DNA from: Candidatus Thorarchaeota archaeon
Lineage (GTDB): Archaea; Asgardarchaeota; Thorarchaeia; Thorarchaeales; Thorarchaeaceae
Direction of reading: 5' to 3'
Assembly: GCA_003345545.1 (NCBI GenBank)
Contig: PRDH01000081.1
Coordinates: 32,001-96,000, forward strand
DNA length: 64,000 nucleotides
A model generated the notes under the pieces. It made no database searches and was not told the origin of the DNA. It was given only the letters and a program-made list of their open reading frames with translations. Made by a program: the position numbers and the translations under genes. Every line of letters starts with the position of its first letter. The first letter of the stretch is position 1. Below, piece by piece: positions 21,498 through 44,189 of the stretch.

Positions 21498-21649
21498 TGG
21501 TGCCGAGAATGGGATTTTCGGATCAGATGCAAACCATCTAATCCTTCGAACCCATGAACCCCTACGAGAGTGGATTTCTCCTGGGAGTCAAGCCGGCAGC
21601 TTGAACGATCTTGAGCCCACCGCCTTTAACCGGGCTTGGCTATCTCGGC
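21498..21649 (-). tRNA. tRNA-Leu(CAA) with two introns: 37/38 (21576-21609, 34 nt) and T-loop 59/60 (21515-21544, 30 nt); CCA encoded
   Basis: Acceptor GCCGAGA/TCTCGGC, long variable arm; cloverleaf is restored after removing both introns. Confidence 0.92.
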
Positions 21650-21898
21650 TTGGACTCCCAGAAATCCAATCAGTATATAGTCATTTTGGACAGACGCACA
21701 GCGATGATGGAACCATCCTTGCTAATCTGTGCAAATAAGGAAAAGGAGCGCCACTTTGGACACGATGAACCGTTCGAGAGCGAGTAATCGATTTTGATGT
21801 TATACTAATAGAGATGAGATTCACATTGAGGATGGCGAAGAAAGGACTGCCTCCAATATGACGAATAAAGAGCCCACCAACGACCGATGACTGGTTCA

Positions 21899-21944
21899 AA
21901 AATGAAGAGGGTGGCTCAAAACAAACAGCAAGGGTAAGTTCCCT
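21899..21944 (-). repeat. Short diverged copy of the 16S 3' trailer repeat, inverted relative to the 16S gene
   Basis: Reverse complement reads agggaacttacccttgctgtttgttttgagccaccctcttcatt. Confidence 0.8.
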
Positions 21945-22011
21945 GATATGATTTTTGAGAATTGGAAATCATACACTCTATGGTGCCGGTAATCGTCTGG
22001 ATGGATAGACC

Positions 22012-22437
22012 ATGAAGAGATCAGTTTTGATCATGACTGGGATATCTTTGCTTGCTACTTTGATTGCACTCACTATTGAAGTATACTATATTATTCTTCA
22101 GACTGAACCCATAGAACTCGATGTAAGGACTAGAGGGGTTACGGAAATTCTTCTCTTTCTCATAAGTGCTCCCTTATTTGCTGCAGCCTGGAATTTGAAG
22201 CAGAAGACAGACAAGACTGTAGTGCTCATTCTGATAGCGATTGGGATTCTCGGCGCCAGTGGAACTTGGGTATTTCACGATTCACTTGCAAGTATTTTCT
22301 TTCCGAAATTGTCCATAATCACATTCTTGATCATCGATTTTGCATGGTTTTGTTTTGTTGGCTTCTTTCTATGGGTTCGTCGGTTGGGCACTCCAGCCAA
22401 ACGAGAGCTAGAGAATCCCCTAAAGATAACAAACTAA
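22012..22437 (+). CDS. Hypothetical 4-TM membrane protein
   Basis: 141-aa hydrophobic ORF between two trailer repeats. Confidence 0.7.
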   Translation: MKRSVLIMTGISLLATLIALTIEVYYIILQTEPIELDVRTRGVTEILLFLISAPLFAAAWNLKQKTDKTVVLILIAIGILGASGTWVFHDSLASIFFPKLSIITFLIIDFAWFCFVGFFLWVRRLGTPAKRELENPLKITN

Positions 22438-22440
22438 CGA

Positions 22441-22532
22441 AAAAAAGGAAGGGTGGCTCAACAGCGACAAGCTAAGGGAGAGTTCGACGATTACCTGACC
22501 CCATCGAAAGCCCGCACCTCTGCCTGTCTGAA
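22441..22532 (-). repeat. Diverged copy of the 16S 3' trailer repeat, inverted relative to the 16S gene
   Basis: Reverse complement ttcagacaggcagaggtgcgggctttcgatgggg...tgtcgctgttgagccacccttcctttttt aligns to 36477-36595. Confidence 0.85.
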
Positions 22533-22612
22533 GCAAGGACAAACAAGAGGATGCGCCAGTCTGCTTTGACGTTCGGAATTACAGGTGAAGAATATCATTG
22601 CACTAGCCCAAT

Positions 22613-22696
22613 GAGAGTGGATGTCTCATCGGAGACAAGCCAGCAGCCTGAATGACCTTGAATCCACGGCCTTTAACCGGATTTGGCTACCTCGGC
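22613..22696 (-). pseudogene. 3'-truncated, diverged tRNA-Leu(CAA) copy retaining the 34-nt 37/38 intron
   Basis: Aligns to 21566-21649; lacks T arm and 3' acceptor strand. Confidence 0.85.
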
Positions 22697-22776
22697 CCAT
22701 ATAGCCAGAAATGAATTACCTGTTACTATTTCAATAGTCCTTCGACGAATATTTCTTTCATACTCGTCTTGAATTT

Positions 22777-23289
22777 CTAGTTGGAATCCTCAACAACTGT
22801 TGATTCATCCCATGGAGAATCTAGCTTTTTCACAACTTTGGACACAAGCAGTAGGGCTATTATCCCTGTACTGGGGACGGGGATACACAGGAGAGGGTTT
22901 GTCGAGATTGGGCAAGGAATGAATATCCAAATGATTAGTATATAGACTACCTGCAATAGAAGAACTTGTTCCAAGTATGTATATCTACTCAAGTTTGGAT
23001 TCTTGAATCCACGCCACACATACGTTGCAACAATAATTCCAGGTGAATAGAACGGAAACATGAAGAGAGTTAGCAAGATTGATACGACAATTGGAGAGGT
23101 TGAGTAGGGATTGCTTGGAAGATATGACCATAGACCAGCATAGATGATGATATTCAGGTTGCCCGAAGTGGGAAGTATGATCTTCAGTGGAGTGAGAAGA
23201 TTCCAAATATGCAAGAAGACTGTTGTTCGTGCTGGAGACCACAAGACCATCCCATTATTCCCCTGAACGTTTCGCCCTCGTTTGCCCAT
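22777..23289 (-). CDS. Hypothetical membrane protein (family shared with 38219-38674)
   Basis: Hydrophobic ORF; ...AGLWS...IPVPSTGIIALLL...PW pattern. Confidence 0.65.
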   Translation of the reverse strand: MGKRGRNVQGNNGMVLWSPARTTVFLHIWNLLTPLKIILPTSGNLNIIIYAGLWSYLPSNPYSTSPIVVSILLTLFMFPFYSPGIIVATYVWRGFKNPNLSRYTYLEQVLLLQVVYILIIWIFIPCPISTNPLLCIPVPSTGIIALLLVSKVVKKLDSPWDESTVVEDSN

Positions 23290-23314
23290 CTACGGTCTAA
23301 ACTCCGACGCTAGA

Positions 23315-23347
23315 TGGCTACCTCGCCCATATAGCCAGAACTGAATT
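23315..23347 (-). repeat. Stub of tRNA-Leu 5' end plus upstream flank
   Basis: tggctacctcgcccatatagccagaactgaatt nearly identical to 22684-22717. Confidence 0.75.
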
Positions 23348-23378
23348 GTCTATAGTATTTAGCCATTTCCGTAGAAAA

Positions 23379-23669
23379 TCAGGGACCTTCGAGGTGTGGC
23401 CTGATTATTTCATAGAACTCGGAGATGATCTTGGACTTGGGATCCTCGGTTTCTAGAATGAACAGGCGTATCTGCTGCCCGACCTTGATCTCCTTGACAA
23501 TACCCATGTCAACCAGAGGCTGCATCACACGATGGATGGTAGAATGTGCCAGACCTGTTTCCTTCGCGACTCTACTGAGGTTGAAGAAATCCTTTGGACG
23601 GTCCAAGAAATGCTGGACCACACGTGTCTGAGCTCGGGATGCGAAAACTTTCTCAAGTAACTTCTTCAA
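23379..23669 (-). CDS. Winged-helix DNA-binding protein
   Basis: LSRVAKETGLAHSTIHRVM helix-turn-helix. Confidence 0.8.
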   Translation of the reverse strand: MKKLLEKVFASRAQTRVVQHFLDRPKDFFNLSRVAKETGLAHSTIHRVMQPLVDMGIVKEIKVGQQIRLFILETEDPKSKIISEFYEIIRPHLEGP

Positions 23670-23675
23670 GTCATT

Positions 23676-24377
23676 CTACCTCTGCTTTGCATTATCATAT
23701 ACAACTCGGGTACCAATCTTTTCTCCACGAAAGGCTCGCGAGAAATTGCTTGCATCTGTCCCATCGAAAATGATCGTAGGTATCTTTGATCGCTCAACAA
23801 CCCTAATGGCGACCGGATCGAACAGCTTGTACTCTCCAGCTTTTGTACCTCCGGCTTCGAGTATCTTTCGCAACTTGTCAATGGTGACAGACTCCAGTTT
23901 TACAGCGCCCGTCTTCTTAGGATCTCTGTCATAGACCCCATCGACATTGGTTGCATTAAACAGAATCTCTGCTCGAACAGTTTCGGCTGCTACTGCTGCG
24001 ACTGCATTGGTGGACTGTGCTGGTATCAGGCCTCCCATTAATACAACCTTGTTCAAGTTGACAGCGACTTCAAGCTCATCAAGGGTTTCCACTATCGTCG
24101 GATACGCAATACTGCCAAGGGCTGCGCATAACAGCTCTGCATTGTCCCTAGCTAGTTTAATTCCAAGCCAGTCACACTGAGCCTCGGTTGCTCCGAGAGA
24201 CCGAGCTGCATCTATGAACGTTCGTGCTGGCTTGCCGCCACCGACCACGACAATAATGGAATGGCCCTCTTTCACCAAGGACTTGATGATATTGGCATAG
24301 TCCTTCACTCTATCGACGATTACACTGCCGTCTTTGTCATAGAGGAGAGACCCTCCAAGTTTCAACACTGCTCTCAT
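23676..24377 (-). CDS. pyrH: Uridylate kinase
   Basis: VLKLGGS, VVGGGKPAR and TNVDGVYDRDP motifs; start re-set to MRAVLK. Confidence 0.95.
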   Translation of the reverse strand: MRAVLKLGGSLLYDKDGSVIVDRVKDYANIIKSLVKEGHSIIVVVGGGKPARTFIDAARSLGATEAQCDWLGIKLARDNAELLCAALGSIAYPTIVETLDELEVAVNLNKVVLMGGLIPAQSTNAVAAVAAETVRAEILFNATNVDGVYDRDPKKTGAVKLESVTIDKLRKILEAGGTKAGEYKLFDPVAIRVVERSKIPTIIFDGTDASNFSRAFRGEKIGTRVVYDNAKQR

Positions 24378-24614
24378 GGCAAGTCCTCTTGGTATGCCTT
24401 GTGGATAGTTTTCCTTCTGACCATTAAAGAAGCTTTCTTGAATGCACCAGTTCGCCGAATTTTCGAACACTACCAGTTTTCTCCCAGAATCCCTGTAATG
24501 TCATGCGGGCCACATAGGCAAATAGAACTGACCAAAGCCCTTTTAGGTGGAATAACCTCAGCGAGTCTAAGCGGCGAGAGCCGACCCTTGTTGACATCAA
24601 GGAGATTGATCCTT

Positions 24615-27086
24615 TTGTCGAACTTAGAACCCAAAATCAAGTCCAAACGGTGGACACCTGAATCAGAGGCTGAACTGCTGGAAACTTGGGCAAAGGAAGA
24701 TACATACGAGTTCAATATGGACTCAGGGAAGAAGATCTACACGGTTGATACTCCCCCTCCCTATCTCTCAGGCCCCATGCACGTAGGGCAGGTCACGCAC
24801 TATACACAGATTGACGCTATTGCACGCTACAGACGAATGCAGGGGTTCGAGGTCAATTTCCCACTTGGAATTGATCGTAATGGTCTACCGGTAGAGATTC
24901 GAGTCGAGAAGGATCTCGGTATTAGTATGCACAGGACACCCCGTGATGAGTTTCTCCACCTGTGCAAGAAACGTCTAGATGATGATGAAAAGATAGCTAT
25001 TCGTGCCTTCAAGAGACTTGGAATCGCCTTCAACACGTATGAGGATAGGGGCAGTTATCGTACCGATAGCCCACGATTCAGGGCTGTGACTCAGGCCACG
25101 TTCATTGAGATTTGGAACAAGGGACTCGTGTATTCTGATGTACGTCCAAACAACTGGTGCTTTGAGTGTGGTACAACTATCGCAGATGCTGAAGTGGAGT
25201 ACTCTGAGCGTCAGACTACCCTGAACTATCTACACTTTGAGGTAGAAGGACTTGATCCGATTGAGATTGCTACAACAAGACCTGAGCTACTCTGTGCATG
25301 TGGCGCAGTGTTTGTTCATCCTGATGATGCACGATATTCTGCTTATCATGGAAAGAAAGCCAGGGTTCCAATCTTCAACATTGAAGTACCCATAATAGCA
25401 AGCTCTGCTGCTCAGATGGAGTTTGCCACAGGAGCTCTAATGGTCTGTAGTTATGGTGATCAGGCTGATGTGATGGCTTTCAGAGATCATGCGCTTACTC
25501 CGATTGCTGCTGTTACACCTGAGGGTACAATGACTGAGGCTGCTGGGAAATATGCCGGCATGACGATGGCTGACGCTAGGAAAGCAATTCTGGCTGATCT
25601 CAAGAAGAAGAAACTGCTTATCCGACAGGAACAGACAATGCAGAGGATACCCCTATGCTGGCGTAGTGGTACACCCATTGAGTTCATTGCGATGAACGAG
25701 TATTACGTGAAACAGGTGGAGTTCGTCGAGGACCTGCTGAAGATCGCCAGAGAAATGACCTTCTACCCACCATTTCACAGGCAGATTCTCATTGATTGGC
25801 TCAACAGAGTCACTGTAGACTGGCCAGTCAGCAGACGCAGATACTATGGCACTGAAATCCCAATCTGGTACTGCAAGTCATGCGGAGCGGCTGTTCTTCC
25901 TGAGCTGACTGGAGAGCCTAAGTATTACCAACCATGGCGAGAGAATCCTCCCTTCTCTAAGTGTCCCAAGTGTGGTGTGGAAGAGGGATTCAGAGGAGAA
26001 GAACGCACCTTTGATACATGGATGGACTCGTCTACTACTGGCCTCCAAATCATAGGATTCATGCGTAATGAAAAGCTGTTCAAGAAAGCCTTTGGAAACG
26101 TACTTCGCCCACAGGGAAAGGACATTGTAAGGACTTGGCTCTATTACTCTCTTCTCCGGACTCTGCAGCTGACAGGGAAGCCTGCGTTTAAAGAAGCATG
26201 GATTTCCGGTCATGTAGTGGATGAAAACGGCGAAACAATGAGCAAGTCCAAAGGCAACTCACCACCTCCGATGCCATTCGTCGAGAAGTATGGTGCCGAT
26301 GCGATGCGTATGTTCGGAATTCTTGAGGCTGGACTCGGCAGCGATGTTCGTTTCTCCGAGGATCGCTTGGCTGGAGTATCGAAATTCATGACCAAGCTCT
26401 GGAATATCGCTCGTTTCATCTCGATGTTTCCAATACCCAAAGAGATGGGATTCAAGAAGCTCACTAGTGTGGATCAATGGATTCTTGCAGAACTGAACAA
26501 GGTCTTGGAGCGAATAGTGCCTGAATGTGATCTTCTTGACTTTCACAAGCCCGCAACAGAAGTCCGAGGATTCACTTGGAACTTCTTCGCGGACATTGTC
26601 ATGGAGATGATCAAGGGACGTGCACTCAATACGAACGGCACCTTTTCAGCAGATGAACAGAAATCTGCCTGGTCCACCTTACATGAGGTATTGAAGAAAG
26701 TGACTCGAGCACTGGCTCCAATTACTCCCTTCATCACTGATCGAATCTACAGAGAGCTCTATGATGAGAGAGGAGTTCACAGACAGAGCTATCCCTTAGT
26801 GCGTAAGGACTGGGAGTCAGATTTGACGGAACACACAGTGCTCTTGCTTCAGACAAACCAAGCACTCTGGAAATTCAAGCGTGAGAATGGGATTTCACTG
26901 AGACAGGGACTCCCTGAGGCCTATATCCCAGAGAATCTTAGACCTTGGTCAAAGGACCTTCAGGCAATGCATGGCATTGAGAGAATCAGCTTTGGACAGC
27001 CCAACGATGCCAAGTTTGTGGAAGTCAAGTTTCTTGAGGTGGAAGGTGCAATCTACATTCGTCCCCCGGCAGAGAATAAGACATGA
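24615..27086 (+). CDS. valS: Valine--tRNA ligase (archaeal type)
   Basis: DTPPPY, HVGQ (HIGH-like), TMSKS (KMSKS), DWPVSRRRYYG; TTG start after aggaga. Confidence 0.95.
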   Translation: MSNLEPKIKSKRWTPESEAELLETWAKEDTYEFNMDSGKKIYTVDTPPPYLSGPMHVGQVTHYTQIDAIARYRRMQGFEVNFPLGIDRNGLPVEIRVEKDLGISMHRTPRDEFLHLCKKRLDDDEKIAIRAFKRLGIAFNTYEDRGSYRTDSPRFRAVTQATFIEIWNKGLVYSDVRPNNWCFECGTTIADAEVEYSERQTTLNYLHFEVEGLDPIEIATTRPELLCACGAVFVHPDDARYSAYHGKKARVPIFNIEVPIIASSAAQMEFATGALMVCSYGDQADVMAFRDHALTPIAAVTPEGTMTEAAGKYAGMTMADARKAILADLKKKKLLIRQEQTMQRIPLCWRSGTPIEFIAMNEYYVKQVEFVEDLLKIAREMTFYPPFHRQILIDWLNRVTVDWPVSRRRYYGTEIPIWYCKSCGAAVLPELTGEPKYYQPWRENPPFSKCPKCGVEEGFRGEERTFDTWMDSSTTGLQIIGFMRNEKLFKKAFGNVLRPQGKDIVRTWLYYSLLRTLQLTGKPAFKEAWISGHVVDENGETMSKSKGNSPPPMPFVEKYGADAMRMFGILEAGLGSDVRFSEDRLAGVSKFMTKLWNIARFISMFPIPKEMGFKKLTSVDQWILAELNKVLERIVPECDLLDFHKPATEVRGFTWNFFADIVMEMIKGRALNTNGTFSADEQKSAWSTLHEVLKKVTRALAPITPFITDRIYRELYDERGVHRQSYPLVRKDWESDLTEHTVLLLQTNQALWKFKRENGISLRQGLPEAYIPENLRPWSKDLQAMHGIERISFGQPNDAKFVEVKFLEVEGAIYIRPPAENKT

Positions 27087-27107
27087 TAATGCCCGCTCCA
27101 CTCGATT

Positions 27108-27542
27108 CTATCCCACTGTCACTTCATTTACATGCTCAGTTGGACACTTCATGCTGTTGGACACAAGGCAGTACTTCCCAGCGAGTTCCAACGCTCGTTC
27201 TGCCTTTGGTATGAGATCTTCAGTGTCGACCGTCACCTTTGTTCTCAGAAGAAGCTTGGTGAACTGAAAGCCCTTCTCCACCTTCTCCAGCGTTCCAAGC
27301 CCTTCACAGGCGAATGACTTGAATTCAACGTGTACTTTCTTTGCGAATGTAATGAAGGTTGTCAGGAAACATGAGGTGGCAGCTGCTACAAAGAGGTCCT
27401 CTGGACTGATGATTCCTTCAGGTCCATCGAATTCAGGAGGTGCTGAGATCTGTATCTTGGGTTTTCCTTTTACAGTCAGATCTCCAACCCTACCGTGTGT
27501 CCAATCAATCTTCACAAGATACTCGTGTGACTCGTCACTCAT
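27108..27542 (-). CDS. OsmC-family protein
   Basis: SPEDLFVAAATSC...KYCLVSNS. Confidence 0.9.
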   Translation of the reverse strand: MSDESHEYLVKIDWTHGRVGDLTVKGKPKIQISAPPEFDGPEGIISPEDLFVAAATSCFLTTFITFAKKVHVEFKSFACEGLGTLEKVEKGFQFTKLLLRTKVTVDTEDLIPKAERALELAGKYCLVSNSMKCPTEHVNEVTVG

Positions 27543-27603
27543 CTCTTTCGCCGTAGTTTCTAGCCTTCATCTCCATGAAAAAAGGATTTGGTTCTTGCCG
27601 CAA

Positions 27604-28038
27604 CTACAGAACAACAATCTCAACATCATGTGAGATTGGGCACTTCATACTGTTACCAACAAAACAATACTTCTTTGCTAGCTCTAGGGCCCGACCAATC
27701 TTATCACGAAGCTCTTCGGATTCAATCTGGGCTCTAGCCCTTATCCGAATTCTGGTTATCTCAAAGCTGCGACCGACCTTCTCCAGTGTCCCGACAGCAT
27801 CACATGTGAATGCCTTGAAATCGATGTGCATCTTTCTTGTGAAATCGACGAAGCCATTCATGTAGCAGACTGATGCGGAGGCTACAAAGAGGTCTTCTGG
27901 AGAATGATAGTTCGCCTCCTCAGGATCGCTTGATGAGGTACCAGTTCTTATGACTGCTTTCCCCTCGACTGATAACTTGCCGGTCCTTCCACCGGTCCAG
28001 ACAAGGCTCACAGGAAAAAGTGTTGGCTCTTCACTCAT
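27604..28038 (-). CDS. OsmC-family protein (tandem paralogue)
   Basis: SPEDLFVASASVC...KYCFVGNS. Confidence 0.9.
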   Translation of the reverse strand: MSEEPTLFPVSLVWTGGRTGKLSVEGKAVIRTGTSSSDPEEANYHSPEDLFVASASVCYMNGFVDFTRKMHIDFKAFTCDAVGTLEKVGRSFEITRIRIRARAQIESEELRDKIGRALELAKKYCFVGNSMKCPISHDVEIVVL

Positions 28039-28098
28039 TCAATACACCTATCCTTTCTCTTGCATAGTCCTGAAAAAGCATTTAGGCGTGGCAACGCT

Positions 28099-28872
28099 CT
28101 ATCCCTTTTCGCCCTTGAAGACGGCAAAGAACGGAATTCGATGCTCTCGATCAAAGAACGCATCATCAGCTGTTGGCTGGGGCTCTCTGAAGGCTACGAG
28201 ATTGAAGCCAGAAGCAATTAGCGCATTCAGGTATGTGCCAAGAGTTCTGTGAAAGAAGCTTATTGCTGCTGGAAATCTCTCGCCTGTCCGAGTGGTCCAA
28301 TAACGTTCGTACTCTCTCTCATCAAAGTACTTGTCGACTTTGAAGTACACCCCCTCTCTTCTTCCAGTCTTAGGGTCTTTCTCACCCATCTCCCAAGAAC
28401 CAGGACCATAGAGATTGAAGGCAGGGTGCACGATGGAGAATACAAGATGTCCACCTTCTCGAAGGACTCGGTAGAACTCTCTGAGTGCCTCTCTGAGGCA
28501 TGGAACATTCAGAAGGACTAGATTTGCGAGCACAATGTCGAATTCGTGGTCTGGAATCGAATCCAGATGACATATGTCCGTCGCTCTGTATTCAACGATG
28601 ATTCCCTCGCGCTTTGCCAGGCTCCTAGACGTTTCTATTAGACGCTCAGATAAGTCGACAGCAGTGACAGAAGCTCCCTTCCCTGCGTAATATCGAGATA
28701 GGTATCCCTCTCCACACCCTGCATCAAGGAGCTTCTTGCCCTTGACATCACCGAGGAGCTGCTCGACGCATGGATTCAGAATGTGTCTGTGGTGAGGTGT
28801 ACCACTTTCTGCAATGAGATCCGCGAATGCCTCTGCATTAGCTTCCCACTGCTGTCGAAATCGGTCGTCCAT
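28099..28872 (-). CDS. Class I SAM-dependent methyltransferase
   Basis: LLDAGCGEG motif. Confidence 0.9.
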   Translation of the reverse strand: MDDRFRQQWEANAEAFADLIAESGTPHHRHILNPCVEQLLGDVKGKKLLDAGCGEGYLSRYYAGKGASVTAVDLSERLIETSRSLAKREGIIVEYRATDICHLDSIPDHEFDIVLANLVLLNVPCLREALREFYRVLREGGHLVFSIVHPAFNLYGPGSWEMGEKDPKTGRREGVYFKVDKYFDEREYERYWTTRTGERFPAAISFFHRTLGTYLNALIASGFNLVAFREPQPTADDAFFDREHRIPFFAVFKGEKG

Positions 28873-29095
28873 GAGCTGTCAACCTAGATCGGCTCTTCTC
28901 AAGTTTTCGCTTGCCTAACCATATTCTATCCCAGGCCTTGCGGACCCGTTTTCTGGTCTTCCCAAGTACTGGGCAACGGTCTACTTGATTGCAGGCCCCA
29001 CTTCGGCTGCAATCTCGTTTTCTACGTGAATTCATGACAAATCAGACCAATCAAAATAAGAGGTCGTAGATATCCGTGCATTTTGGTAGTTCAAG

Positions 29096-30298
29096 ATGGT
29101 CATCGACGAACGGCACTCAGATGAAGCAAAAACAGAGAGAAATCCGGCATACGTGCTTGGACTCGCCTCTTTGCTTAATGATACTGGATCTGATATGATT
29201 GCTCCTATCTGGCCTGCCTTTCTTACCACTCAGCTTGGCATAGATCCCGGTGTTGTACAGATGATTGATGGTCTGGCATTGACAGTCACTTCCCTCTCAA
29301 AGCTAGGCGCTGGCTATGCTTCAGACAAAACAGGCAAACGGAAGCCATTCATTGCTCTGGGATATGCCCTGTCGTCTATTGCACGCATAGGATTCATTCT
29401 TGCCACCTTTGGATACCAGTTCTTCCAGATACTCCTCTGGAAGTCTATGGACCGACTTGGCAAAATGCGAGGGCCCCCACGTGATGCAATAGTTGCTGCT
29501 TACGCATCAGAGAAGAAACGGGGACGTACATTTGGTGTACTGCGGGCACTTGACACCACAGGTGCAGTTCTGGGCTCGTTTATTACCCTCCTTCTCTTTG
29601 CCTATTTAGGTTATACGGGGATTATCCTGTTGGCCGTTGTTCCAGGTCTCGGTTCCGTTGTTGTAGTTTCTGCACTTATAAAGGAAAGAAGAGGAAGAGA
29701 TGCCTTCAAGGGGGTGAATTTCCGTGGTCTTGACCGCAATCTTAAGGTATTTCTCGTGGCCTCTGTTCTCTTTGCTCTTGCGACTTTCAGCTACTCACTA
29801 TTGATTCTCTATTCAGCCACTTTTGGGCACACAGTCATTCAACAGACGGCTCTCTATCTGCTGTTCACGATTGTGTACGCTGCCACAGCATACCCCTTTG
29901 GCAGAATCTCGGATAGGGTGGGTCGAAAACCTGTACTAATTGCTGCCTTCCTCTTCTTGATACTGACAGCAGTCTGGGCCTACTCATTCACCACTGATAT
30001 GCTGACTATCGTGCCTCTCTTCATCCTCTTTGGACTGATGAATGGTGCTCTCGATCCTGTTCAGACAAGCCTGGTCGCTGACCTAGTGGAGGAGAAGCGC
30101 CGTGCGAGTGTCATTGGAGCATTTCAAATGGCGATTGGTATGTCCGCGCTTCCTGGGGGACTGATTATTGGATATCTCTGGGATCAATTCAATCCTCAAG
30201 CAGTCTTCCTGTATTCAATCGTTCTCACATTTCTAGCATTGATTCTACTGTTACTCATACGAACGAAAAGGAGCGAACTGGTAACCAGCGCAAGTTGA
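29096..30298 (+). CDS. MFS transporter
   Basis: GYASDKTGKRK and GRISDRVGRK motif A; about 12 TM. Confidence 0.92.
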   Translation: MVIDERHSDEAKTERNPAYVLGLASLLNDTGSDMIAPIWPAFLTTQLGIDPGVVQMIDGLALTVTSLSKLGAGYASDKTGKRKPFIALGYALSSIARIGFILATFGYQFFQILLWKSMDRLGKMRGPPRDAIVAAYASEKKRGRTFGVLRALDTTGAVLGSFITLLLFAYLGYTGIILLAVVPGLGSVVVVSALIKERRGRDAFKGVNFRGLDRNLKVFLVASVLFALATFSYSLLILYSATFGHTVIQQTALYLLFTIVYAATAYPFGRISDRVGRKPVLIAAFLFLILTAVWAYSFTTDMLTIVPLFILFGLMNGALDPVQTSLVADLVEEKRRASVIGAFQMAIGMSALPGGLIIGYLWDQFNPQAVFLYSIVLTFLALILLLLIRTKRSELVTSAS

Positions 30299-30301
30299 AG
30301 A

Positions 30302-30408
30302 TGGTGGACCGGGCGAGATTTGAACTCGCGGCCTTCTGAAGTGTCGGCCTGTGGCTAACACCAGCAAGCTTGCGAATCAGACGATCTACCGGTCTGATCT
30401 ACCGGCCC
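30302..30408 (-). tRNA. tRNA-Ala(CGC) with a 30-nt anticodon-loop intron (30341-30370); CCA encoded
   Basis: GGGCCGG/CCGGTCC acceptor with G3:U70, TCTGA/TCAGA anticodon stem, TTCAAAT T-loop. Confidence 0.93.
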
Positions 30409-30460
30409 ACTGAGATGCTTCTCCGTATGGATTTCTTAAAAGATTGTCTGCTCATATGAA

Positions 30461-30754
30461 TCAGATCTCAATCCCAAATGCCTCGGAGAACCGTTCCATT
30501 CTAAGGAACTCCCGAAGGAACTCTCTGCCTTTCTCTGTCAGCAGGTATGACCGATTGTTACTATCAGGGCCCACCTCTTGCACGAGTGCTTTTTCGACCA
30601 GTTCTTCCAGATATTGGGTCAATCGATCATGGGACAGATTTGCCGCGTAGAGTATCTTAGTCGGGCCTGTGCCTTCCTCCCCCTCACTCTGAATGGCACG
30701 CATCATATCTGCTAGGATGCGCATCTTTGAGCGATAGGGTCGCTTCTTACTCAT
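30461..30754 (-). CDS. Archaeal winged-helix transcriptional regulator
   Basis: RSKMRILADM...TKILYAANLS...YLLTEKG pattern. Confidence 0.88.
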   Translation of the reverse strand: MSKKRPYRSKMRILADMMRAIQSEGEEGTGPTKILYAANLSHDRLTQYLEELVEKALVQEVGPDSNNRSYLLTEKGREFLREFLRMERFSEAFGIEI

Positions 30755-31368: not shown

Positions 31369-31494
31369 TGGGTGACGCCTGTCCTATTCTTGTCAGCTTT
31401 GGTCTTATTACTGGTGAATGAATCATCTATGGCTTTTCTCTAATTCGGTGACATAATCCCCTGCTTCAGACGGTCTTTAGTGCGGATACTTCTT

Positions 31495-31511
31495 CTAGAT
31501 GAATCATCTAG
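31495..31511. promoter_or_regulatory. Palindromic candidate operator CTAGATGA-A-TCATCTAG (partial second copy 31418-31429)
   Basis: Perfect 8-bp inverted repeat upstream of the membrane protein/wHTH operon. Confidence 0.45.
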
Positions 31512-31736
31512 TGGTATCGTTCATCGCGCCTTTATATCGAGAATGCACTATACTTAACGTGCAAATCATGGAGCATGCCAAGAAGGCACTTGCATTCGTG
31601 GTTGCACAGATGGGCCGAACTCTCACGGCCCAACACATGATGGAAGAGTTCCGACAACTGCAAGATGAGCAGACAGGTAGACACTGTTTCTGCTTTGAAA
31701 GGCGGAGGAAACTCCGCCCTTCCATCGCCTTTTGTT

Positions 31737-34346: not shown

Positions 34347-34709
34347 CTGGGCTCTCTCCAGTTTCTTTTACTGGGCTTCTCCACGGATGGAGTATGTTAT
34401 GAAGTTTCGTGCCTCCGCAGGTGAAAGCGCACTGAGAGCCAAGCTTGACCAGAATCATCTACTGAATGGCTCACGAATGGAGCCGCATAGCCCTTTTCTG
34501 TGGGTGCAGTTGTTTCTTTAGCAGCCCCTTGGAAAGCTTTTTATTAGAACTCTTCGCGGAAGAGTTTGCTTTCGCATCATACGGTGTCAGGCCGGATGCT
34601 GTCGGCGAATGCCAAGCTATGATGGCTCGTGATTTCCAGATGCGATGACAAGATGCGGACGTGAGATAGACTGGCACACATGTGACAGAATACCCTCAGG
34701 TCTAAGAAA

Positions 34710-34782
34710 GGCTCAACAGTGTGCAGGTATAACATGGGTAAGCTATCTCTGCTAACCCCGTTAAGCCTGTACTTCATCAAGC
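34710..34782 (+). other. 5' leader strand of the pre-16S processing stem
   Basis: Colinear complementarity to the trailer 36466-36580 in six blocks (see findings). Confidence 0.8.
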
Positions 34783-34870
34783 GAATTAAGTTCTGTGTGT
34801 AAAAGTGTTGTACAAAGTGACTGAGTACTACTCCAGTCATTCCTTGCTAAGATGTACAATATTAGGACCA

Positions 34871-36432
<1,562 letters not shown>

Positions 36433-36600
36433 AAGTTTTCACCATCTTCAAGATGGTGAAGATTAGCTTGCCTGTCTTCGGACAGGTAGAGGTACAGGCC
36501 TTCGACGGGGAACGCGGTGCAATCGTAAGGTTGCCCCGACGCCAAAGTGGAGAACTTGCTCTTGCTGTCGCTGTTGAGCCACCCTTTTCCTTTTTCATTC
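36433..36600 (+). repeat. Native 16S 3' trailer (hairpins, processing-stem strand, T-tract); prototype of the array repeat
   Basis: Directly follows the 16S gene; ends ctgttgagccaccc-ttttccttttt. Confidence 0.9.
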
Positions 36601-36712
36601 ATTTACATATGCAAGTTGACTCTCTATGTGTCATCTTGGAGGAAGTCCTTTCTTGATTTTCTCCAAGAGATCTCGTACCTCGCCAAACATCGCATCATAA
36701 TCGATGACTATG

Positions 36713-37924
36713 CTAGAGTATCTCCGGAGTCGATTTTGAATCAATACCTGTGCGAGTCGCGCGAATTCTTCGTCTTCTCCAACGAAGACCAAGGATACCA
36801 ATAGTGAGTGCAATTGCAATTCCAGCGGTTCCAATGACTATCAGTAGAAGGTCCTCTTGACCTGAGAGGAGAAGCATGTCAAGATTGCCTCCTGCAGAGG
36901 TTCTGAGAATACAGCCATCGTATCCTACTACCCATCCGTGCAACTCATCAACGAAACAGACAGCCATCCTGCGACTGCCTATGTCGGTAGGAACTGATTG
37001 TTGATACCAGGTACTTCCACCATTCGGCGTGTGCATCACAGGGATCTCATCGCCTACGATCCATCCGTGCTGGTCATCAATGAATTGTATATCTGAACAA
37101 TATGGAGATCTGAGCCGAAATGAAGGAAGTCTTCCGGGGACAGCCAGCTCCTCCCACGTATGGTCTTGCTCCATGTGGAGGAGGTAGCCATCACTGACAC
37201 CCCATGCTTCGTCTTCGTTGGGAAACGATAGGCTCCAGCCTCCCTTATCAAAGACCTTCTCCCAGGTCTCCGCGCCATCATCGCTATGGTAGATACCATC
37301 ATAGCCAATCGCCCATACTTCATGCTCGGTCAAGAAATGCATGTCCCGAGGATTATCGTCAAACGTCCAACCAGTCATATTCTGCCAGGTCTGCCCTCCA
37401 TCAGTTGTTTTGAAAAGCATCTGCATCGTGGCAGTCCATCCATGGGTCTCATTGAGGAACTCCACCGTACTCATGGTCGACAGACGATTACTACCCGCAA
37501 GAGAGGTATGCCATGACGCTCCACTATCGTTTGTGAAGTAGAGACGACCGAGTCCAGTCACCCATACTGTTCGATCATTCACTACCTCAATTTGTCTGAA
37601 TATCTGCGAATCATCAGCGAGCTGGGTCTCCCAGGTGTCCCCACCGTCTTCTGTGTGAAGAATAATACCACCTCTAGTTATGTTAGGGTACAATATTCCC
37701 ACGACCCATCCGTGAGAGGAATTGATGAACTCAACATCACGAAATGTAGCCTCTGGGTAGTCGCTCTCAAGGGATATCCACGTTGTGGCCTGAGTCTGTG
37801 CAGGTCCTATCGACGCTGCATCTGTAGAAGTTATAGGCAGACCTGTGTATGCAAATCCAAGTAGGATCAGCAGTAGTATAGCACTGAGCCTGCGACCGGT
37901 TCTGGATGTTCTCAGGGGAATCAT
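36713..37924 (-). CDS. Ycf48/BNR-repeat beta-propeller surface protein with C-terminal membrane anchor
   Basis: Repeated TxDGGxTW Asp-boxes; start re-set to MIPLR because the longer ORF reads through the repeat. Confidence 0.88.
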   Translation of the reverse strand: MIPLRTSRTGRRLSAILLLILLGFAYTGLPITSTDAASIGPAQTQATTWISLESDYPEATFRDVEFINSSHGWVVGILYPNITRGGIILHTEDGGDTWETQLADDSQIFRQIEVVNDRTVWVTGLGRLYFTNDSGASWHTSLAGSNRLSTMSTVEFLNETHGWTATMQMLFKTTDGGQTWQNMTGWTFDDNPRDMHFLTEHEVWAIGYDGIYHSDDGAETWEKVFDKGGWSLSFPNEDEAWGVSDGYLLHMEQDHTWEELAVPGRLPSFRLRSPYCSDIQFIDDQHGWIVGDEIPVMHTPNGGSTWYQQSVPTDIGSRRMAVCFVDELHGWVVGYDGCILRTSAGGNLDMLLLSGQEDLLLIVIGTAGIAIALTIGILGLRWRRRRIRATRTGIDSKSTPEIL

Positions 37925-38000
37925 GCTCAGCTTATTCCTTACAGAATTGGTCTTGAATGAGTTATCATATAGGTCTTTGTCCACCTTAGGTGGATACGAA

Positions 38001-38110
38001 GTAGAGGTACAGGCCTTCGACGGGGAACGCGGTGCAATCGTCAGGTTGCCCGATGCCAAAGTGGGGAACTTGCTCGTGCTGTCGCTGTTGAGCCACCCTT
38101 TTCCTTTTTC
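38001..38110 (+). repeat. Trailer repeat copy 1
   Basis: Near-identical to 36486-36596. Confidence 0.95.
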
Positions 38111-38218
38111 ACCCATCTATCAGACTCAGTGGACCATTTATCAATTGATTTAAGAATCAGTCTGACTCCAAGTTCCTTGACTTTGATTACGTGGTAATGA
38201 TAGGGTGGCTAATGAAGA

Positions 38219-38674
38219 ATGACCAGTGACAGACTGGCAAAATGGATCATGGCTATTACAACTCTGTTTGCCCCCTTTGGCGTGTACGCTTTCTCAGTAC
38301 GTAACTCTATCCTCACGGTATCAATGCACGCTGTGTTATGGGGTATCATGCCAGGAGAGTCTGGAAATACTGGGTCGACACTATTTGATATGTACATCAT
38401 TATAGGGAGGGGTTTATTTTATGGCATCTTTAACATCTGGTTTGGCATAGAGGTCATCAGATACTTCAATGACTACACCCGTAGACGAATGGCCATTCAA
38501 TCGGGAATCATATCATTACTCTACCCCTTTGCAATGGTCATCATTTCATGGCCTTGGCTTCAACATTCAACAACATTTGAGTATCTTGGACCAATTCCCA
38601 TCCAATTTATCGTTGGTCTCTTGTTGATGAAGTACTTTGGAGAACAAAAACCTCTTGAACCTTGGAGCGATTAA
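38219..38674 (+). CDS. Hypothetical membrane protein
   Basis: 151-aa hydrophobic ORF, GPIPIQFIVGLLLMK motif. Confidence 0.75.
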   Translation: MTSDRLAKWIMAITTLFAPFGVYAFSVRNSILTVSMHAVLWGIMPGESGNTGSTLFDMYIIIGRGLFYGIFNIWFGIEVIRYFNDYTRRRMAIQSGIISLLYPFAMVIISWPWLQHSTTFEYLGPIPIQFIVGLLLMKYFGEQKPLEPWSD

Positions 38675-38858
38675 AATAGTGGCATTTGCTTCTCTATCTA
38701 CTACCTCGGTGGAAACCCTCTCTTGACACGTTTTAGCATGAATCGCATATTGGTTGAGAGTAGTTAATATTGACCGTTTCAGACAACTACATAGAGAGTT
38801 GATTCACAATCCCATAGATGAAAGAGTTTAATTCATAACCTTCGGATGGTAGTACATA

Positions 38859-39095
38859 ATGATGAAAGTAAAATTCACTGCTGTTGTATGGGAAGAAGAG
38901 GGGACATACGTTTCCAAATGTCCCGAGATTGATGTATCATCTGCAGGGGACACCGTTGAAGAGGCTCTGGCTAACCTCACAGAGGCAATAGAGCTCTGGC
39001 TCGTCAATGCACGTGAGCTTGGAATCATGGATGAGTATCTTCCGATGATGACTGCCTCTGAGAAGTCCACACGTACGATCGAGATCAACGTCTGA
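38859..39095 (+). CDS. hicB: HicB-family antitoxin
   Basis: YVSKCPEIDVSSAGDTVEEALANLTEAIELW. Confidence 0.92.
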   Translation: MMKVKFTAVVWEEEGTYVSKCPEIDVSSAGDTVEEALANLTEAIELWLVNARELGIMDEYLPMMTASEKSTRTIEINV

Positions 39096-39140
39096 GTTCT
39101 AGATTTGTATGGCCGTTATAGCTGGCACACAGTGATGTCA

Positions 39141-39374
39141 ATGAGTAAGTTACCTCAGATCAGTAGTAAGAAGCTCATCCGGAGGTTACTCAAGGCTGGT
39201 TTTCAATACGCTCCTGTGAAAGGAAAAGGTAGTCATACCGCTCTCGTCAGGTATGATGATAATCGACCATATCTCGTTATCATTCCTCACAGAGATCCGA
39301 TTCCAAAGGGAACTCTTCTCTCAATCATCAAACAGAGTGGACTATCAAAAGAGAAATTTCTAGGCTTGTTATGA
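39141..39374 (+). CDS. hicA: HicA-family toxin
   Basis: KGSH and IIPH...IPKGTLLSIIKQSGL motifs. Confidence 0.92.
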   Translation: MSKLPQISSKKLIRRLLKAGFQYAPVKGKGSHTALVRYDDNRPYLVIIPHRDPIPKGTLLSIIKQSGLSKEKFLGLL

Positions 39375-39422
39375 AGATTCGAGTACTCCTTTTGAAGGAC
39401 TGACTTGTTCATCCCAAATGAA

Positions 39423-39529
39423 TACAGGTCTTCGACGGCGGGGAACGCGGTGCAATCGTCAGGTTGCCCGATGCCAAAGTGGGGAACTTGCTCGTGCTGT
39501 TCGCTGTTGAGCCACCCTTTCGTTTTTCA
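39423..39529 (+). repeat. Trailer repeat copy 2
   Basis: tacaggtcttcgacggcggggaacgcgg...gctgttgagccacccttt. Confidence 0.95.
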
Positions 39530-39573
39530 CTAGTTACTTCAATCAGTGCTGATTGAGGTTGAATGCAGGAGTT

Positions 39574-39780
39574 TCAAGTCTCTCTGTAACTGAGTTTCAA
39601 TATTGCTAGAGCCACTGCAGATAGACCTAATGCAAGCACGATCATTTGAGCTCCAGCTATCACATCTGCGTTGAAGCCGCCCGATAGACTACCCAAGAGT
39701 AATGTTGCTGTTAATAATGCTAACACTACTAGAATATACACCAAAACTGATAGAACTCTCTGATGATTAATTGGAAACAC
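39574..39780 (-). CDS. Small 2-TM hypothetical protein
   Basis: 68-aa hydrophobic ORF filling the interval between two repeats. Confidence 0.5.
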   Translation of the reverse strand: MFPINHQRVLSVLVYILVVLALLTATLLLGSLSGGFNADVIAGAQMIVLALGLSAVALAILKLSYRET

Positions 39781-39886
39781 CTCCCAGTATTACATAACTA
39801 GAGATTCACTCAGAAGAACCTTCCTCTTCTATCCTAGTATTCCATGTTATCAGCTTTTCCGAATGCATATCTCTCTGATGGACCTC

Positions 39887-39958
39887 GGGTACGGACCAAC
39901 GGGGTCGGACTGTCGGGGAACTTGCCCCTGCTGTCGCTGTTGAGCCACCCCTTCATTC
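39887..39958 (+). repeat. Trailer repeat copy 3 (short variant)
   Basis: ggggaacttgcccctgctgtcgctgttgagccacccc. Confidence 0.9.
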
Positions 39959-40034
39959 TTCAGCTGGCTGTTTGAGTGCAGATTGATGGAGGAGTTTATA
40001 TATCTACATCTACACATGTAGATTGTGAAGTAGT

Positions 40035-40283
40035 ATGACATCAAAGACAATCTCTGTGACAGAAGATGTCTACAACCTTCTCCGGAAGATGCGATTACCT
40101 GGTGAGAGTTTCGGTGATACCATCAACCGACTATGTAAGTCCAAGACATCACTCTCTCTCCGTATATGGGCTGAGTCCTCCGATGGCTGGAGCGATTTGA
40201 CCCCTGAAGAAGCTACACGACTGGAAAACACCCTTGAAACAATCCGCATCACACTTCATCCCGAAGAGGTCGATCTAGATTGA
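40035..40283 (+). CDS. vapB: VapB-family antitoxin
   Basis: KTISVTEDVY...GESFGDTINRL pattern; overlaps a PIN gene. Confidence 0.88.
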   Translation: MTSKTISVTEDVYNLLRKMRLPGESFGDTINRLCKSKTSLSLRIWAESSDGWSDLTPEEATRLENTLETIRITLHPEEVDLD

Positions 40284-40687
40284 TCTTCTTGGACACCACC
40301 CTTCTTGTAGACATCCTGAGAAAGGATAGGGTGGCAATCTCATGGCTGAATGACCTTGAAGAGCAAGCTCTGTATACATCAGAAATCAATGTCTTTGAAC
40401 TATATACCGGCCTCTTCCGCGTTTCCCAAGGTTCTACTACAAAAAGAAAGAAGAGGGCTCTCGAGCTCGAGCAACTTCTCTCCAGGATGGAAGTACTTAC
40501 GTTTGACAGAAATGCTGCCATTGAATCCGCGAAGATACTCTCCCTCCTGATGAGCAGAGGAGAACCCATTGGTACGCGTGACATCATGATTGCTGGTGTG
40601 GCACTATCCACGGGGATAACACAGCTAGTGACACGCAATATCCAAGAGTTCCAAAGGATTCCAGGTATACGTGTTGACTCCTACTAG
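40280..40687 (+). CDS. vapC: VapC/PIN-domain toxin
   Basis: FLDTTLLVD...EL...DIMIAG...VTRNIQEF. Confidence 0.93.
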   Translation: MIFLDTTLLVDILRKDRVAISWLNDLEEQALYTSEINVFELYTGLFRVSQGSTTKRKKRALELEQLLSRMEVLTFDRNAAIESAKILSLLMSRGEPIGTRDIMIAGVALSTGITQLVTRNIQEFQRIPGIRVDSY

Positions 40688-40749
40688 ATTGACTTCTTGC
40701 ATGAATCAATAATCACGAAGCATAGAATGGTTCAATAACCTTGAAGCAT

Positions 40750-41122
40750 ATGAAGGCTGAAACCGTGTTAATCTCATTGCTGTTCTGTGGCAGTTCCCTG
40801 CAATCTCAGACGCCCCTCATTTCGAGATACTCTCTAGTCTTCGGTTGGTTTTCTTCATAGTTGTAATGACATACATCTGGTCTTCGCACTATCAGTCAAT
40901 GAGTACTTACAAGGAAAATCAACTGCATTCAGGGTCTCCATACTCTGGGCTGTCAGTCAGACGCCTATTCATGTACTTAGCCTTCCCCGTTGTTTTACAG
41001 GGTCATATCCTGGATCGATCTTCTACACCGGTCCTACATTCATAATTCTGATTGCCGGGTTGCTCTTGATGAAGCTCGTTCGGCAACGCAGCAATAGGCT
41101 GTGGGTCGAGTCTACTCAGTAG
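40750..41122 (+). pseudogene. Frameshifted relic of the 38219-type membrane protein
   Basis: 3' frame reads GPTFIILIAGLLLMKLVRQRSNRLW*, similar to GPIPIQFIVGLLLMKYFGEQKPLEPW; no continuous ORF. Confidence 0.55.
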
Positions 41123-41152
41123 GACACTCTCGAGACGATGAATCATGCATAT

Positions 41153-41250
41153 GCTTTCAAGGCAAAATGCAGTGCAATCTTCAGGTTGCCCCGACGCCAA
41201 GGTGGGGAACTTGCCCCTGCTGTTCGCTGTTGAGCCACCCTTTTCTTTTT
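41153..41250 (+). repeat. Trailer repeat copy 4
   Basis: gcagtgcaatcttcaggttgccccgacgcc...gctgttgagccacccttttcttttt. Confidence 0.93.
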
Positions 41251-41409
41251 ACAATATCTTTCAGAATGAGTTGAGTCTATTTTCTATCATGAGATCATTG
41301 TGATATTGAGATGTCCGTTAGAATTCTCTTCACATCATCTATTGTCAACAATCTGAAATGGACCATTATTGATGGTGTTTTTTTGAGCATCTCTATTGAT
41401 TCAATCGAA

Positions 41410-41847
41410 TTAGATATTGGTCGGGTCAAGTCTTGTTAGACCTTCTATTCTATCATAGATACGATCTGTTGAAGCAATAGTATGATCCGGATTGTCATTA
41501 CTGAGTGAAACTGCTGCATAAATCGCATCAAAGATGGAACCCAATCTATAATTCTCCAAGAGATATAGCGCTGCTAGTTGATGATCAATTGTAGAAGGGA
41601 CAACTGAGATATTTGGGAACGTAACAACGTGACTTATGATATCACGAACTGAGGACACACCAGTGAGGTTTCTCAAGACATAGTAAAGTTCTATGGAGAA
41701 GATACTTGGAACAAGGACACTCCCGAACTTACCTTCTTCAATACTTGAGAAAAGTCGAGTCGCATGCGTTTTTAGATTGTCATTCTTCTTATAGAACGCC
41801 AAGATCATATCGTTCTCGATTAGCATTCCGTTTCTTTCCGCCTCCAT
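41410..41847 (-). CDS. PIN-domain (VapC-like) toxin (start probably ~41826)
   Basis: LIENDMI...IEL...FDAIYAA...STDRIYD. Confidence 0.88.
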   Translation of the reverse strand: MEAERNGMLIENDMILAFYKKNDNLKTHATRLFSSIEEGKFGSVLVPSIFSIELYYVLRNLTGVSSVRDIISHVVTFPNISVVPSTIDHQLAALYLLENYRLGSIFDAIYAAVSLSNDNPDHTIASTDRIYDRIEGLTRLDPTNI

Positions 41848-42068
41848 CGTTTGGATACATCCTTCGCAATCTCTGCATCTGCTTTGGCAAGGAGGTCCGC
41901 AATTGGTCCCTCAATATCCAATTCTGGTTTATCAGAGGGGATAGGAAAGAGGATATGATAAGATCCAATGGTAAGGAGAAGAAAAGTATCTCCTTCGAGT
42001 CCTGCCTTTCTTGGGATTCTGATGCGTCTTTGATCATCCATTCGAACTCTTACCATCAAGATGAACAC
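41820..42068 (-). CDS. AbrB/MazE-like antitoxin
   Basis: VRMDDQRRIRIP motif; overlaps the PIN gene. Confidence 0.8.
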   Translation of the reverse strand: MFILMVRVRMDDQRRIRIPRKAGLEGDTFLLLTIGSYHILFPIPSDKPELDIEGPIADLLAKADAEIAKDVSKRWRRKETEC

Positions 42069-42202
42069 CTCGTATGATTGTAAGACAAATATGATTTAAA
42101 GATATGGATGAAATTCACACTTTATGGATGAAATATGTATATATTGACCTATTTCTATCAGGCTACAATATTCGGCGACATCTCATTCGATTGATTCAGG
42201 GA

Positions 42203-42431
42203 GTATCCGACGCGGAAGCTGCGGATGGAAGAAGTTGAGATTTCCTCATCTTCCATCACTCACCTCCTATTTTTTCTACTTCATAGAGGTAGAAGCAGCT
42301 TGGCTCGCAGTCCTTCGGGGCTGTGGGAGAAGTACGGGCCTTCGACAGCGGGGAACGCGGTGCAATCGTCAGGTTGCCCCGACGCCAAAGTGGGGAACTT
42401 GCTCTTGCTGCGGCTGTTGAGCCACCCTTTT
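42203..42431 (+). repeat. Trailer repeat copy 5, including an orphan 16S 3' end (helix 45 and anti-SD, 42203-42268) interrupted by a 30-nt BHB intron (42230-42259)
   Basis: gtatccgacgcggaagctgcggatgga[30 nt]tcacctcct, then a complete diverged trailer. Confidence 0.93.
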
Positions 42432-42532
42432 CGTTGTCTATCGTCAATTTCGGATGAGTGTAAGTCAGGTTTATCTTCTCTCTCGTTTGCTTTCAGGTTT
42501 AAATATGTGACTTGACCAAGTGGGAATAATCA

Positions 42533-43300: not shown

Positions 43301-43344
43301 CTTCCCTTCAATGAAATTATAAGTAATCATCAACATTATGATTT

Positions 43345-43810: not shown

Positions 43811-43830
43811 CTCACCTCAGATAGAGTTTC

Positions 43831-44160: not shown

Positions 44161-44189
44161 TATGCTCACCAAGCGTTTCATACGGACAC

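Follow-up and report, generated by a model that had tools for sequence, protein, structure and literature searches.

Nearly all tRNA and rRNA introns in one family of Thorarchaeota are versions of a single hairpin module of about 30 nucleotides (nt). Five of them lie in the stretch of DNA analyzed here, a window of 64,000 nt from a Candidatus Thorarchaeota archaeon (GenBank assembly GCA_003345545.1, contig PRDH01000081.1, positions 32,001 to 96,000), and had been listed in an earlier note on this DNA as unrelated bulge-helix-bulge (BHB) introns of exactly 30 nt. The inserts are very probably genuine BHB introns that belong to a family-wide class of about 30 nt. Our overall reading, a hairpin intron module of one Thorarchaeota family that is maintained by selection and spliced in the ordinary way by EndA and RtcB, seems to us probable. 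On the narrower proposition that the uniform length stems mainly from selection on structure rather than from the mode of origin, we are evenly divided. Coordinates refer to the window unless a contig is named; G000 denotes this genome, G010, G014 and G015 are congeners, and G025 is a genome of the sister family.

Results

Six introns interrupt RNA genes of the window

Scanning the window with Rfam detected one archaeal 16S rRNA gene (34871-36432) and one tRNA gene (30305-30408, minus strand), and aragorn called no tRNA anywhere in it. A tRNA-Leu(CAA) gene at 21498-21649 was overlooked by both programs. The RNA genes and their inserts are as follows (lengths in nt or base pairs, bp; z, local fold z-score; E. 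coli positions converted by hand).

21498-21649, minus strand: tRNA-Leu(CAA) gene with encoded CCA, 152 nt (88-nt mature tRNA plus introns of 34 and 30 nt), read by hand and obtained identically from a solver constrained by cloverleaf and BHB

21515-21544, minus strand: T-loop intron (59/60) of this tRNA-Leu, 30 nt, near-perfect BHB, 9-bp stem, 5-nt loop, central helix 4/4, outer helix 5 bp, z -4.0

21576-21609, minus strand: anticodon-loop intron (37/38) of the same tRNA-Leu, 34 nt, irregular hairpin, central helix 3/4, weak local fold (z -0.5)

30302-30408, minus strand: tRNA-Ala(CGC) gene with G3:U70 and encoded CCA, 107 nt, from Rfam (56 bits), aragorn and the sequence itself

30341-30370, minus strand: intron (37/38) of this tRNA-Ala, 30 nt, stem of 5+4 bp with one bulged C, 4-nt loop, central helix 3/4

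34871-36432, plus strand: 16S rRNA gene, 1562 nt (the 1502 nt of intron-less congeners and two introns of 30 nt), from Rfam SSU_rRNA_archaea (1246 bits) and alignment to congeners

36229-36258, plus strand: 16S intron, 30 nt, near the helix 28/44 junction, after about E. coli position 1386, z -2.3

36362-36391, plus strand: 16S intron, 30 nt, after about E. coli position 1499, z -2.4

42203-42268, plus strand: orphan 16S end, repeating the final 36 nt of the gene (helix 45 and anti-Shine-Dalgarno, anti-SD; repeat D9, 93% identical to 36397-36423), split by an intron, with a 16S trailer copy behind it

42230-42259, plus strand: intron of the orphan end, 30 nt, after about E. coli position 1531, z -3.7

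All five listed introns were confirmed as exactly 30 nt at these coordinates. Both 16S inserts are clean 30-column indels relative to intron-less 16S genes of the same genus and measure exactly 30 nt against the Rfam model as well; together with the 1502 nt of the congeners they explain the 1562-nt length of the gene exactly. Once spliced, tRNA-Ala(CGC) matches at every base the tRNA-Ala(CGC) that a congener encodes without an intron, and 42203-42229 joined to 42260-42268 gives helix 45 and the anti-SD tail. The 34-nt intron of tRNA-Leu was absent from the earlier list and is a counter-example to "exactly 30" inside the very range that the list covered, leaving five of six introns in the window at 30 nt.

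The inserts share one bulge-helix-bulge geometry

All sites were compared with a single BHB register, in which exon positions -5 to -2 (counted from the 5' splice site) pair with intron positions L-5 to L-2 (L, intron length) and a 3-nt bulge lies 3' of each strand. The five 30-nt introns all follow this register, with two 3-nt bulges and a 4-bp helix between them. Four have the build 1+9+5+9+4+2, with 4/4 pairs in the central helix and 8-9 of 9 stem pairs; tRNA-Ala deviates with its 5+4 bp stem, one bulged base and 4-nt loop. The geometry described in the earlier note (1 nt, a stem of ~9 bp with a loop of ~5 nt, 4 nt and 2 nt in four inserts, less regular in tRNA-Ala) was thus borne out. Local fold z-scores were -4.0, -2.3, -2.4 and -3.7 for the regular inserts and -1.0 for tRNA-Ala, and minimum-energy folds at both 16S sites gave the 4-bp helix, the 3-nt bulge and the hairpin. 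By our own arithmetic, each site has a chance of about 5e-5 of showing all four central-helix pairs together with eight or more of the nine stem pairs in the sole register that restores the mature RNA.

The rule that EndA cuts after the second base of each bulge had been said to restore canonical RNA in every case, and it does so in all five. The 16S sites and tRNA-Ala become equal to intron-less congeners upon excision, and the T-loop and anticodon loop of tRNA-Leu regain their sizes. Anticodon-loop sites and the T-loop site of tRNA-Leu have the strict hBHBh' form. It is absent where introns lie in rRNA, the D-loop or the T-stem; there the exon-side outer helix has 0-2 bp and is missing at the rRNA sites, so that the motifs are relaxed BHBs, of a kind known among substrates of (alpha-beta)2 enzymes.

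Asgard rRNAs are known to carry expansion segments (PMC7594248). One might suppose that the rRNA inserts are unspliced expansion hairpins kept in the mature 16S and that only the tRNA inserts are introns. We regard this as highly improbable. The rRNA inserts break the universally conserved 16S core, where they sit in single-stranded or functional segments (beside the decoding region, in GUCGUAACAAGG, and between helix 45 and the anti-SD). They come and go among congeners as clean 30-nt indels, and they have the same BHB register and hairpin build as the tRNA introns.

Intron lengths cluster around 30 nt in this genome

We took a census of tRNA introns that relies on no splicing motif. Fragments found with nhmmer were passed to a spliced profile alignment allowing gaps of 8-150 nt and then refined by cloverleaf score. 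This procedure superseded splicing tests with strict BHB motifs and aragorn, which recovered few genes; aragorn passes too many boundary variants. Around 27 of the approximately 36 recognized tRNA genes were interrupted. Their introns were 24-34 nt long, mostly 28-33 and most commonly 30, plus one of 63 nt, with D-loop intron lengths uncertain by about 3 nt. Introns whose ends are fixed by the cloverleaf (T arm and anticodon arm) measured 24, 28, 29, 30, 31, 32, 33 and 34 nt. Among 29 measured introns, ten were of 30 nt, five of 31, four of 29 and three of 32. Gaps of ~60 nt consisted of two introns each (Trp 33+28, Tyr 32+31, Pro 31+32), and tRNA-Gly(GCC) has three, of 31, 30 and 31 nt. Nearly all resolved tRNA genes encode their 3' CCA.

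The census clusters narrowly around 30 and thereby describes a narrow class rather than a fixed length. Of the claim that length is fixed at 30 nt, the constraint and the mode of 30 hold, while the exactness gives way to a narrow spread of about 28-34 nt, with the 34-nt intron inside the same tRNA-Leu. The genome-wide length plot suggested as a check came out accordingly: lengths gathered at 28-33 nt with a mode of 30 in the motif-free census, but only about a third of the measured introns were exactly 30 nt. Genome-wide BHB scans at three stringencies gave counts that were flat over length, with no peak at 30 nt. Hence, copies of the module are not scattered as a repeat beyond the RNA genes, and the introns cannot be detected with motif scans alone. 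In the 23S rRNA of this genome we found no micro-intron relative to congeners. Over the whole genome, aragorn without intron search found 10 tRNA genes, and Rfam scored 23 above its cut-off.

The sole clear length outlier is an elongator-type tRNA-Met(CAT) (G000:C16:48175-48311), which has a single 63-nt anticodon-loop intron and seemingly no encoded CCA. About ten candidate tRNA loci stayed unsolved, including a cluster on contig C38 and a fragment in the window at ~49764-49797. The latter is a weak tRNA-like match on the minus strand (G000:C81:81764-81797; nhmmer E 2.2, model columns 11-44) to which no gene could be fitted, perhaps a tRNA interrupted several times, perhaps a relic. Two tRNA-Gly-like 3' halves, comprising T arm, acceptor strand and CCA, stand free with no recognizable 5' half nearby (G000:C22:3036-3068 and G000:C40:2924-2963), and may be integration relics or heavily interrupted genes.

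The length class extends across the family but not to the sister family

We analyzed tRNA-Ala genes from two sets, 28 genomes of the same genus and 81 genomes of 17 genera sampled across the class. The acceptor stem with G3:U70 and the CCA end were the sole criteria for recognizing a gene, with 50-170 nt allowed inside. Without an intron, tRNA-Ala was 75-78 nt long (30 distinct sequences). Single-intron genes (n = 31) measured 106 nt (two), 107 nt (23), 108 nt (four) and 109 nt (two), and the intron was accordingly exactly 30 nt in 23 of the 31 and 29-32 nt in the others. Two genes were longer, one of 136 nt with two introns and one of 142 nt. The introns occupied five positions (20, 21, 38, 54 and 59/60) and had unrelated stem sequences. 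Nevertheless, 27 of the 31 had a central helix of 4/4 and the remaining four one of 3/4, and in the fixed register the stem formed 6-9 of 9 pairs in all but two (5/9 and 4/9). Micro-introns in the rRNA of congeners measured 30, 30, 30 and 32 nt, plus one of ~31 nt in 23S.

In four other genera of the family, tRNA spans reported by Rfam fell into clusters of 71-76, 82-85, 101-110, 113-118, 132-139 and 167 nt, with only two values, 98 and 99, in between. By contrast, spans were continuous in G025, the one genome sampled from the sister family, where 11 of 28 measured 87-97 nt, corresponding to introns of ~13-23 nt. These data show that length is indeed constrained, as the earlier note had supposed, and far beyond the window. 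Further queries added little: a tRNA-Gly query across the class matched mostly intron-less genes and was uninformative, a tRNA-Ala query across the phylum gave little information on other classes, and the flanks of the fetched loci held no further tRNA families.

We considered whether the shared length might be a coincidence, or a product of selective listing from a broad spread of short archaeal introns. The omission of the 34-nt intron and the modest fraction of exactly 30-nt introns in this genome would fit such an explanation. However, lengths clustered at 28-33 nt even though the census used no motif and admitted gaps of 8-150 nt. Moreover, 23 of 31 tRNA-Ala introns were exactly 30 nt in genes anchored by the acceptor stem only, and tRNA spans were quantized in four other genera and not in the sister family. 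The idea is largely refuted, and we give it hardly any weight.

Introns covary with their targets and share an apical loop

Twelve orthologous or paralogous pre-tRNA-Ala sequences with a 37/38 intron aligned without gaps over 107 columns, with highly diverged introns between nearly invariant exons. Orthologues of the tRNA-Ala intron at 30341-30370 in 11 other genomes kept the 30 nt and showed compensatory changes. In the alignment, 93.6% of cells were compatible with pairing in the BHB structure, against 32-54% when partners were slid, and seven of the nine hairpin pairs had double changes. The central-helix pair 35-64 changed from C-G to U-A together with the first base of the anticodon (CGC versus UGC). 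The 4-nt segment is therefore truly target-adapted and co-evolves with its target, as had been proposed. Where tRNA-Ala introns were 29 or 31 nt long, the change in length lay mostly in the loop, as judged by eye. The 36362 intron is likewise 30 nt in the congener G015, where two of its G-U stem pairs are replaced by A-U and G-C.

We next aligned 22 non-redundant 30-nt introns (<70% identical), drawn from this genome and the tRNA-Ala set, by their geometry. Position 13 was T in 20 of 22, position 10 was G in 17 and position 16 was C in 16, giving a loop consensus of A-T-T-T-C. A G-C-closed, AUUUC-like apical pentaloop is thus common to unrelated sites, a feature that the earlier note had overlooked. 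Its statement that the introns share no obvious sequence applies to the stems, which carry little information content, and fails for the loop, given the T at position 13. Positions 25-27 mirror recurrent targets. A search for intron families or donor copies with blastn-short, comparing 29 introns with each other and with the whole genome, returned only words of 7-9 nt or the 3' end complementary to the T-loop. The same search found in this genome no related introns in different tRNA types of the kind known from Thermoproteales.

A sister-family genome has a similar splicing endonuclease

This genome encodes two EndA paralogues that are 32% identical and each contain both Pfam domains. The Tyr, His and Lys positions are kept in the 188-aa protein; the 212-aa protein has Ala where His aligns, as well as an acidic N-terminal tail. 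RtcB is also encoded (587 bits). The pair fits an (alpha-beta)2 enzyme, with subunit assembly and specificity as predicted properties; EndA of this type cuts non-canonical introns (PMC5829648). The sister-family genome G025 has the same pair of paralogues. The catalytic subunits of the two families align closely, and their comparison revealed no family-specific domain or insertion. The sole difference concerned the acidic N-terminal tail of the non-catalytic paralogue, which is 20-30 residues longer here than in the sister-family genome (L022:1168-1806, G000:C16, versus L153 and L154).

As the sister-family genome has similar EndA proteins yet many introns of 13-23 nt, the endonuclease core alone does not explain the length. 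This weakens the suggestion that selection on endonuclease geometry is by itself responsible.

Individual introns turn over between species

Among five 16S genes of the same genus, the 36229 intron occurs only in this genome and is missing from the other four. Many congeners have an intron-less tRNA-Ala(CGC), and others have a 30-nt intron in the T-loop or D-loop instead. The 16S gene of G014 (L012) contains a different 30-nt intron together with one of 900 nt, and in 23S two congeners have a ~31-nt intron and one (G010, L027) an intron of 783 nt. The comparison indicates that individual introns are gained and lost between species. The long rRNA introns of congeners (900 nt in 16S, 783 nt in 23S) sit at sites that elsewhere have a short intron or none.

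The orphan 16S end bears on this turnover. In G015, a 16S gene fragment truncated at the contig end has a 32-nt intron in the identical position; this intron is homologous to that of the orphan end, and the trailer behind the fragment resembles the orphan's trailer. Given these two resemblances, the orphan is best read as an older or foreign 16S terminus that was displaced by an intron-less one; its intron would then be a relic outside any working gene. As to the suggestion in the earlier note that such introns could shield conserved RNA genes from integrating elements, the orphan end demonstrates no more than the replacement of a 16S terminus with an intron by one lacking it. The orphan end lies within 36478-45241, where about eight copies of a ~120-nt 16S trailer repeat bound small units of cargo. 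The stretch has the look of a cassette array whose anchor is the 3' end of the rRNA, and no integrase was seen in it. Its cargo genes are listed below.

36713-38116, minus strand: BNR/YCF48-like gene

39105-39374: HicA

40280-40687 and 41410-41847: two PIN proteins

42533-43300: GNAT

Gain and loss between congeners would also be expected if a lineage-specific process created or copied a hairpin of ~30 nt into new sites and only the 4-nt target segment were re-fitted. Possible routes are reverse splicing followed by reverse transcription and recombination, or templated hairpin synthesis, the idea that the earlier note had preferred. Such a process would account for the same module at many unrelated tRNA and rRNA sites and for the apical loop and closing pair that recur across sites, as a common template would give. 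It would also fit the confinement of the class to one family although the sister family has similar EndA. On the other hand, no second copy of any intron was found in the genome, and introns of different sites resemble each other only in the target-complementary 3' end. The intron at 36229-36258, private to this genome, is also without a relative. The best-conserved part is the unpaired loop, which points to selection rather than descent. Orthologous introns have diverged heavily while keeping their length, so that selection is needed in any case. Finally, neither copying nor mobile elements nor reverse transcription gained support in a preprint that dealt with other families of Asgard archaea (10.64898/2026.10.13.758758). 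Weighing these points, we think an origin of this kind rather unlikely to be the explanation of the uniform length.

Discussion

We favor the reading that a hairpin module maintained by selection is spliced by ordinary enzymes. In the precursor RNA, the four exon bases upstream of the 5' splice site would pair with intron bases 25-28 to give a 4-bp helix flanked by two 3-nt bulges, on which the 9-bp hairpin of the intron would stack. A two-subunit EndA of the (alpha-beta)2 type would cut after the second base of each bulge, and RtcB would join the exons and probably circularize the intron. The module, consisting of 1 nt, a 9-bp stem with the G-C-closed AUUUC-like pentaloop, the 4-nt target-matched segment and 2 nt, would serve in this manner at many unrelated sites. 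Its length would be held by purifying selection on structure, with stems drifting by compensatory substitution and the 4-nt segment tracking its target. Such selection most likely exists because splice sites with little or no outer helix in the exons could be presented by a helix that folds by itself, has a fixed length and carries a particular U-rich loop. What is involved may be some factor or folding requirement specific to the lineage and not the endonuclease core itself.

Several points weigh against this reading. Splicing and circles are deduced from genomes. The constraint is not absolute, as introns of 24, 27-28, 33, 34 and 63 nt occur in this genome. Orthologue sets are non-independent samples, and the family-wide test draws mainly on one tRNA family and on rough gene spans. 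A hairpin that presents splice sites leaves unexplained why the same 9-bp stem occurs in anticodon-loop introns, where a 5-bp outer helix is already available, and why the sister family copes with introns of 13-23 nt and a very similar EndA.

The size of the module and its loop could come from a lineage-specific factor, from a folding optimum or from the way in which the introns are made. We also entertain, as a doubtful possibility, a dedicated module whose conserved loop and 9-bp stem would be read by a lineage-specific RNA-binding factor that licenses poor BHB sites, or would be stamped in by a lineage-specific insertion process.

How do these introns compare with known systems? The tRNA introns of Thermoproteales are more varied in length and often shorter. 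As far as they are relayed in later accounts, they resemble ours in occupying many positions outside 37/38, often several per gene (Sugahara 2008, Fujishima 2010 via PMC11291895, 10.64898/2026.10.13.758758), and in having strict or relaxed BHB motifs that are recognized by a heterotetrameric (alpha-beta)2 endonuclease (via PMC11291895, 10.64898/2026.10.13.758758). They differ in forming sequence families shared by tRNA types, 28% at at least 80% identity (10.64898/2026.10.13.758758), none of which were found here. In the searchable literature, neither a uniform 30-nt module nor a shared loop is reported for Thermoproteales.

The small (<50 nt) 16S introns of Thermoproteales (Jay & Inskeep 2015, PMC4496867) are likewise short BHB introns that lie in conserved 16S regions, form hairpins and are non-coding. 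Their distribution among relatives is patchy, and they sometimes stand beside long homing-endonuclease introns, comparable to the 900-nt and 30-nt introns of G014. The present introns differ in that they belong to an Asgard archaeon and in that those of rRNA share their exact build with the tRNA introns of the same organism. The insertion sites (~1386, 1499 and 1531 in hand-converted E. coli numbering) lie outside the 13 loci described for Thermoproteales (PMC4496867), with 1386 close to their locus 1391.

Within Asgard archaea, very high tRNA intron loads are known from Atabeyarchaeia and Freyarchaeia (PMC11291895). In these two groups and in Jordiarchaeaceae, most tRNA genes contain introns, often several and often non-canonical (PMC11291895; 10.64898/2026.10.13.758758). 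They further share with the present family repeated gains at BHB-competent sites, two EndA paralogues and the failure to find a copying route. Their median intron is, in contrast, 22-23 nt long (10.64898/2026.10.13.758758). Thorarchaeota, rRNA introns, a fixed length and a loop motif all go unmentioned in the main text of that preprint, a 2026 study of tRNA introns in Asgard archaea. We found no description of a uniform ~30-nt intron class in the searchable literature, which is not proof of absence.

The origin of archaeal BHB introns is an open question, as is the reason why some lineages fill their tRNA genes with them; in the latest Asgard study, the route by which introns arrive is unknown (10.64898/2026.10.13.758758). 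One build, one length and one loop in one family and not in its sister family provide a sharp contrast that can be tested. On the practical side, standard tRNA finders miss many of these genes, and some members of the family would be missed by 16S primers that span sites near 1390, 1492 and the 3' end. A dedicated module, if true, would be the first defined system that governs the installation or maintenance of archaeal endonuclease-type introns, and this in the archaeal group closest to eukaryotes. The class may help to show how archaeal introns arise and persist.

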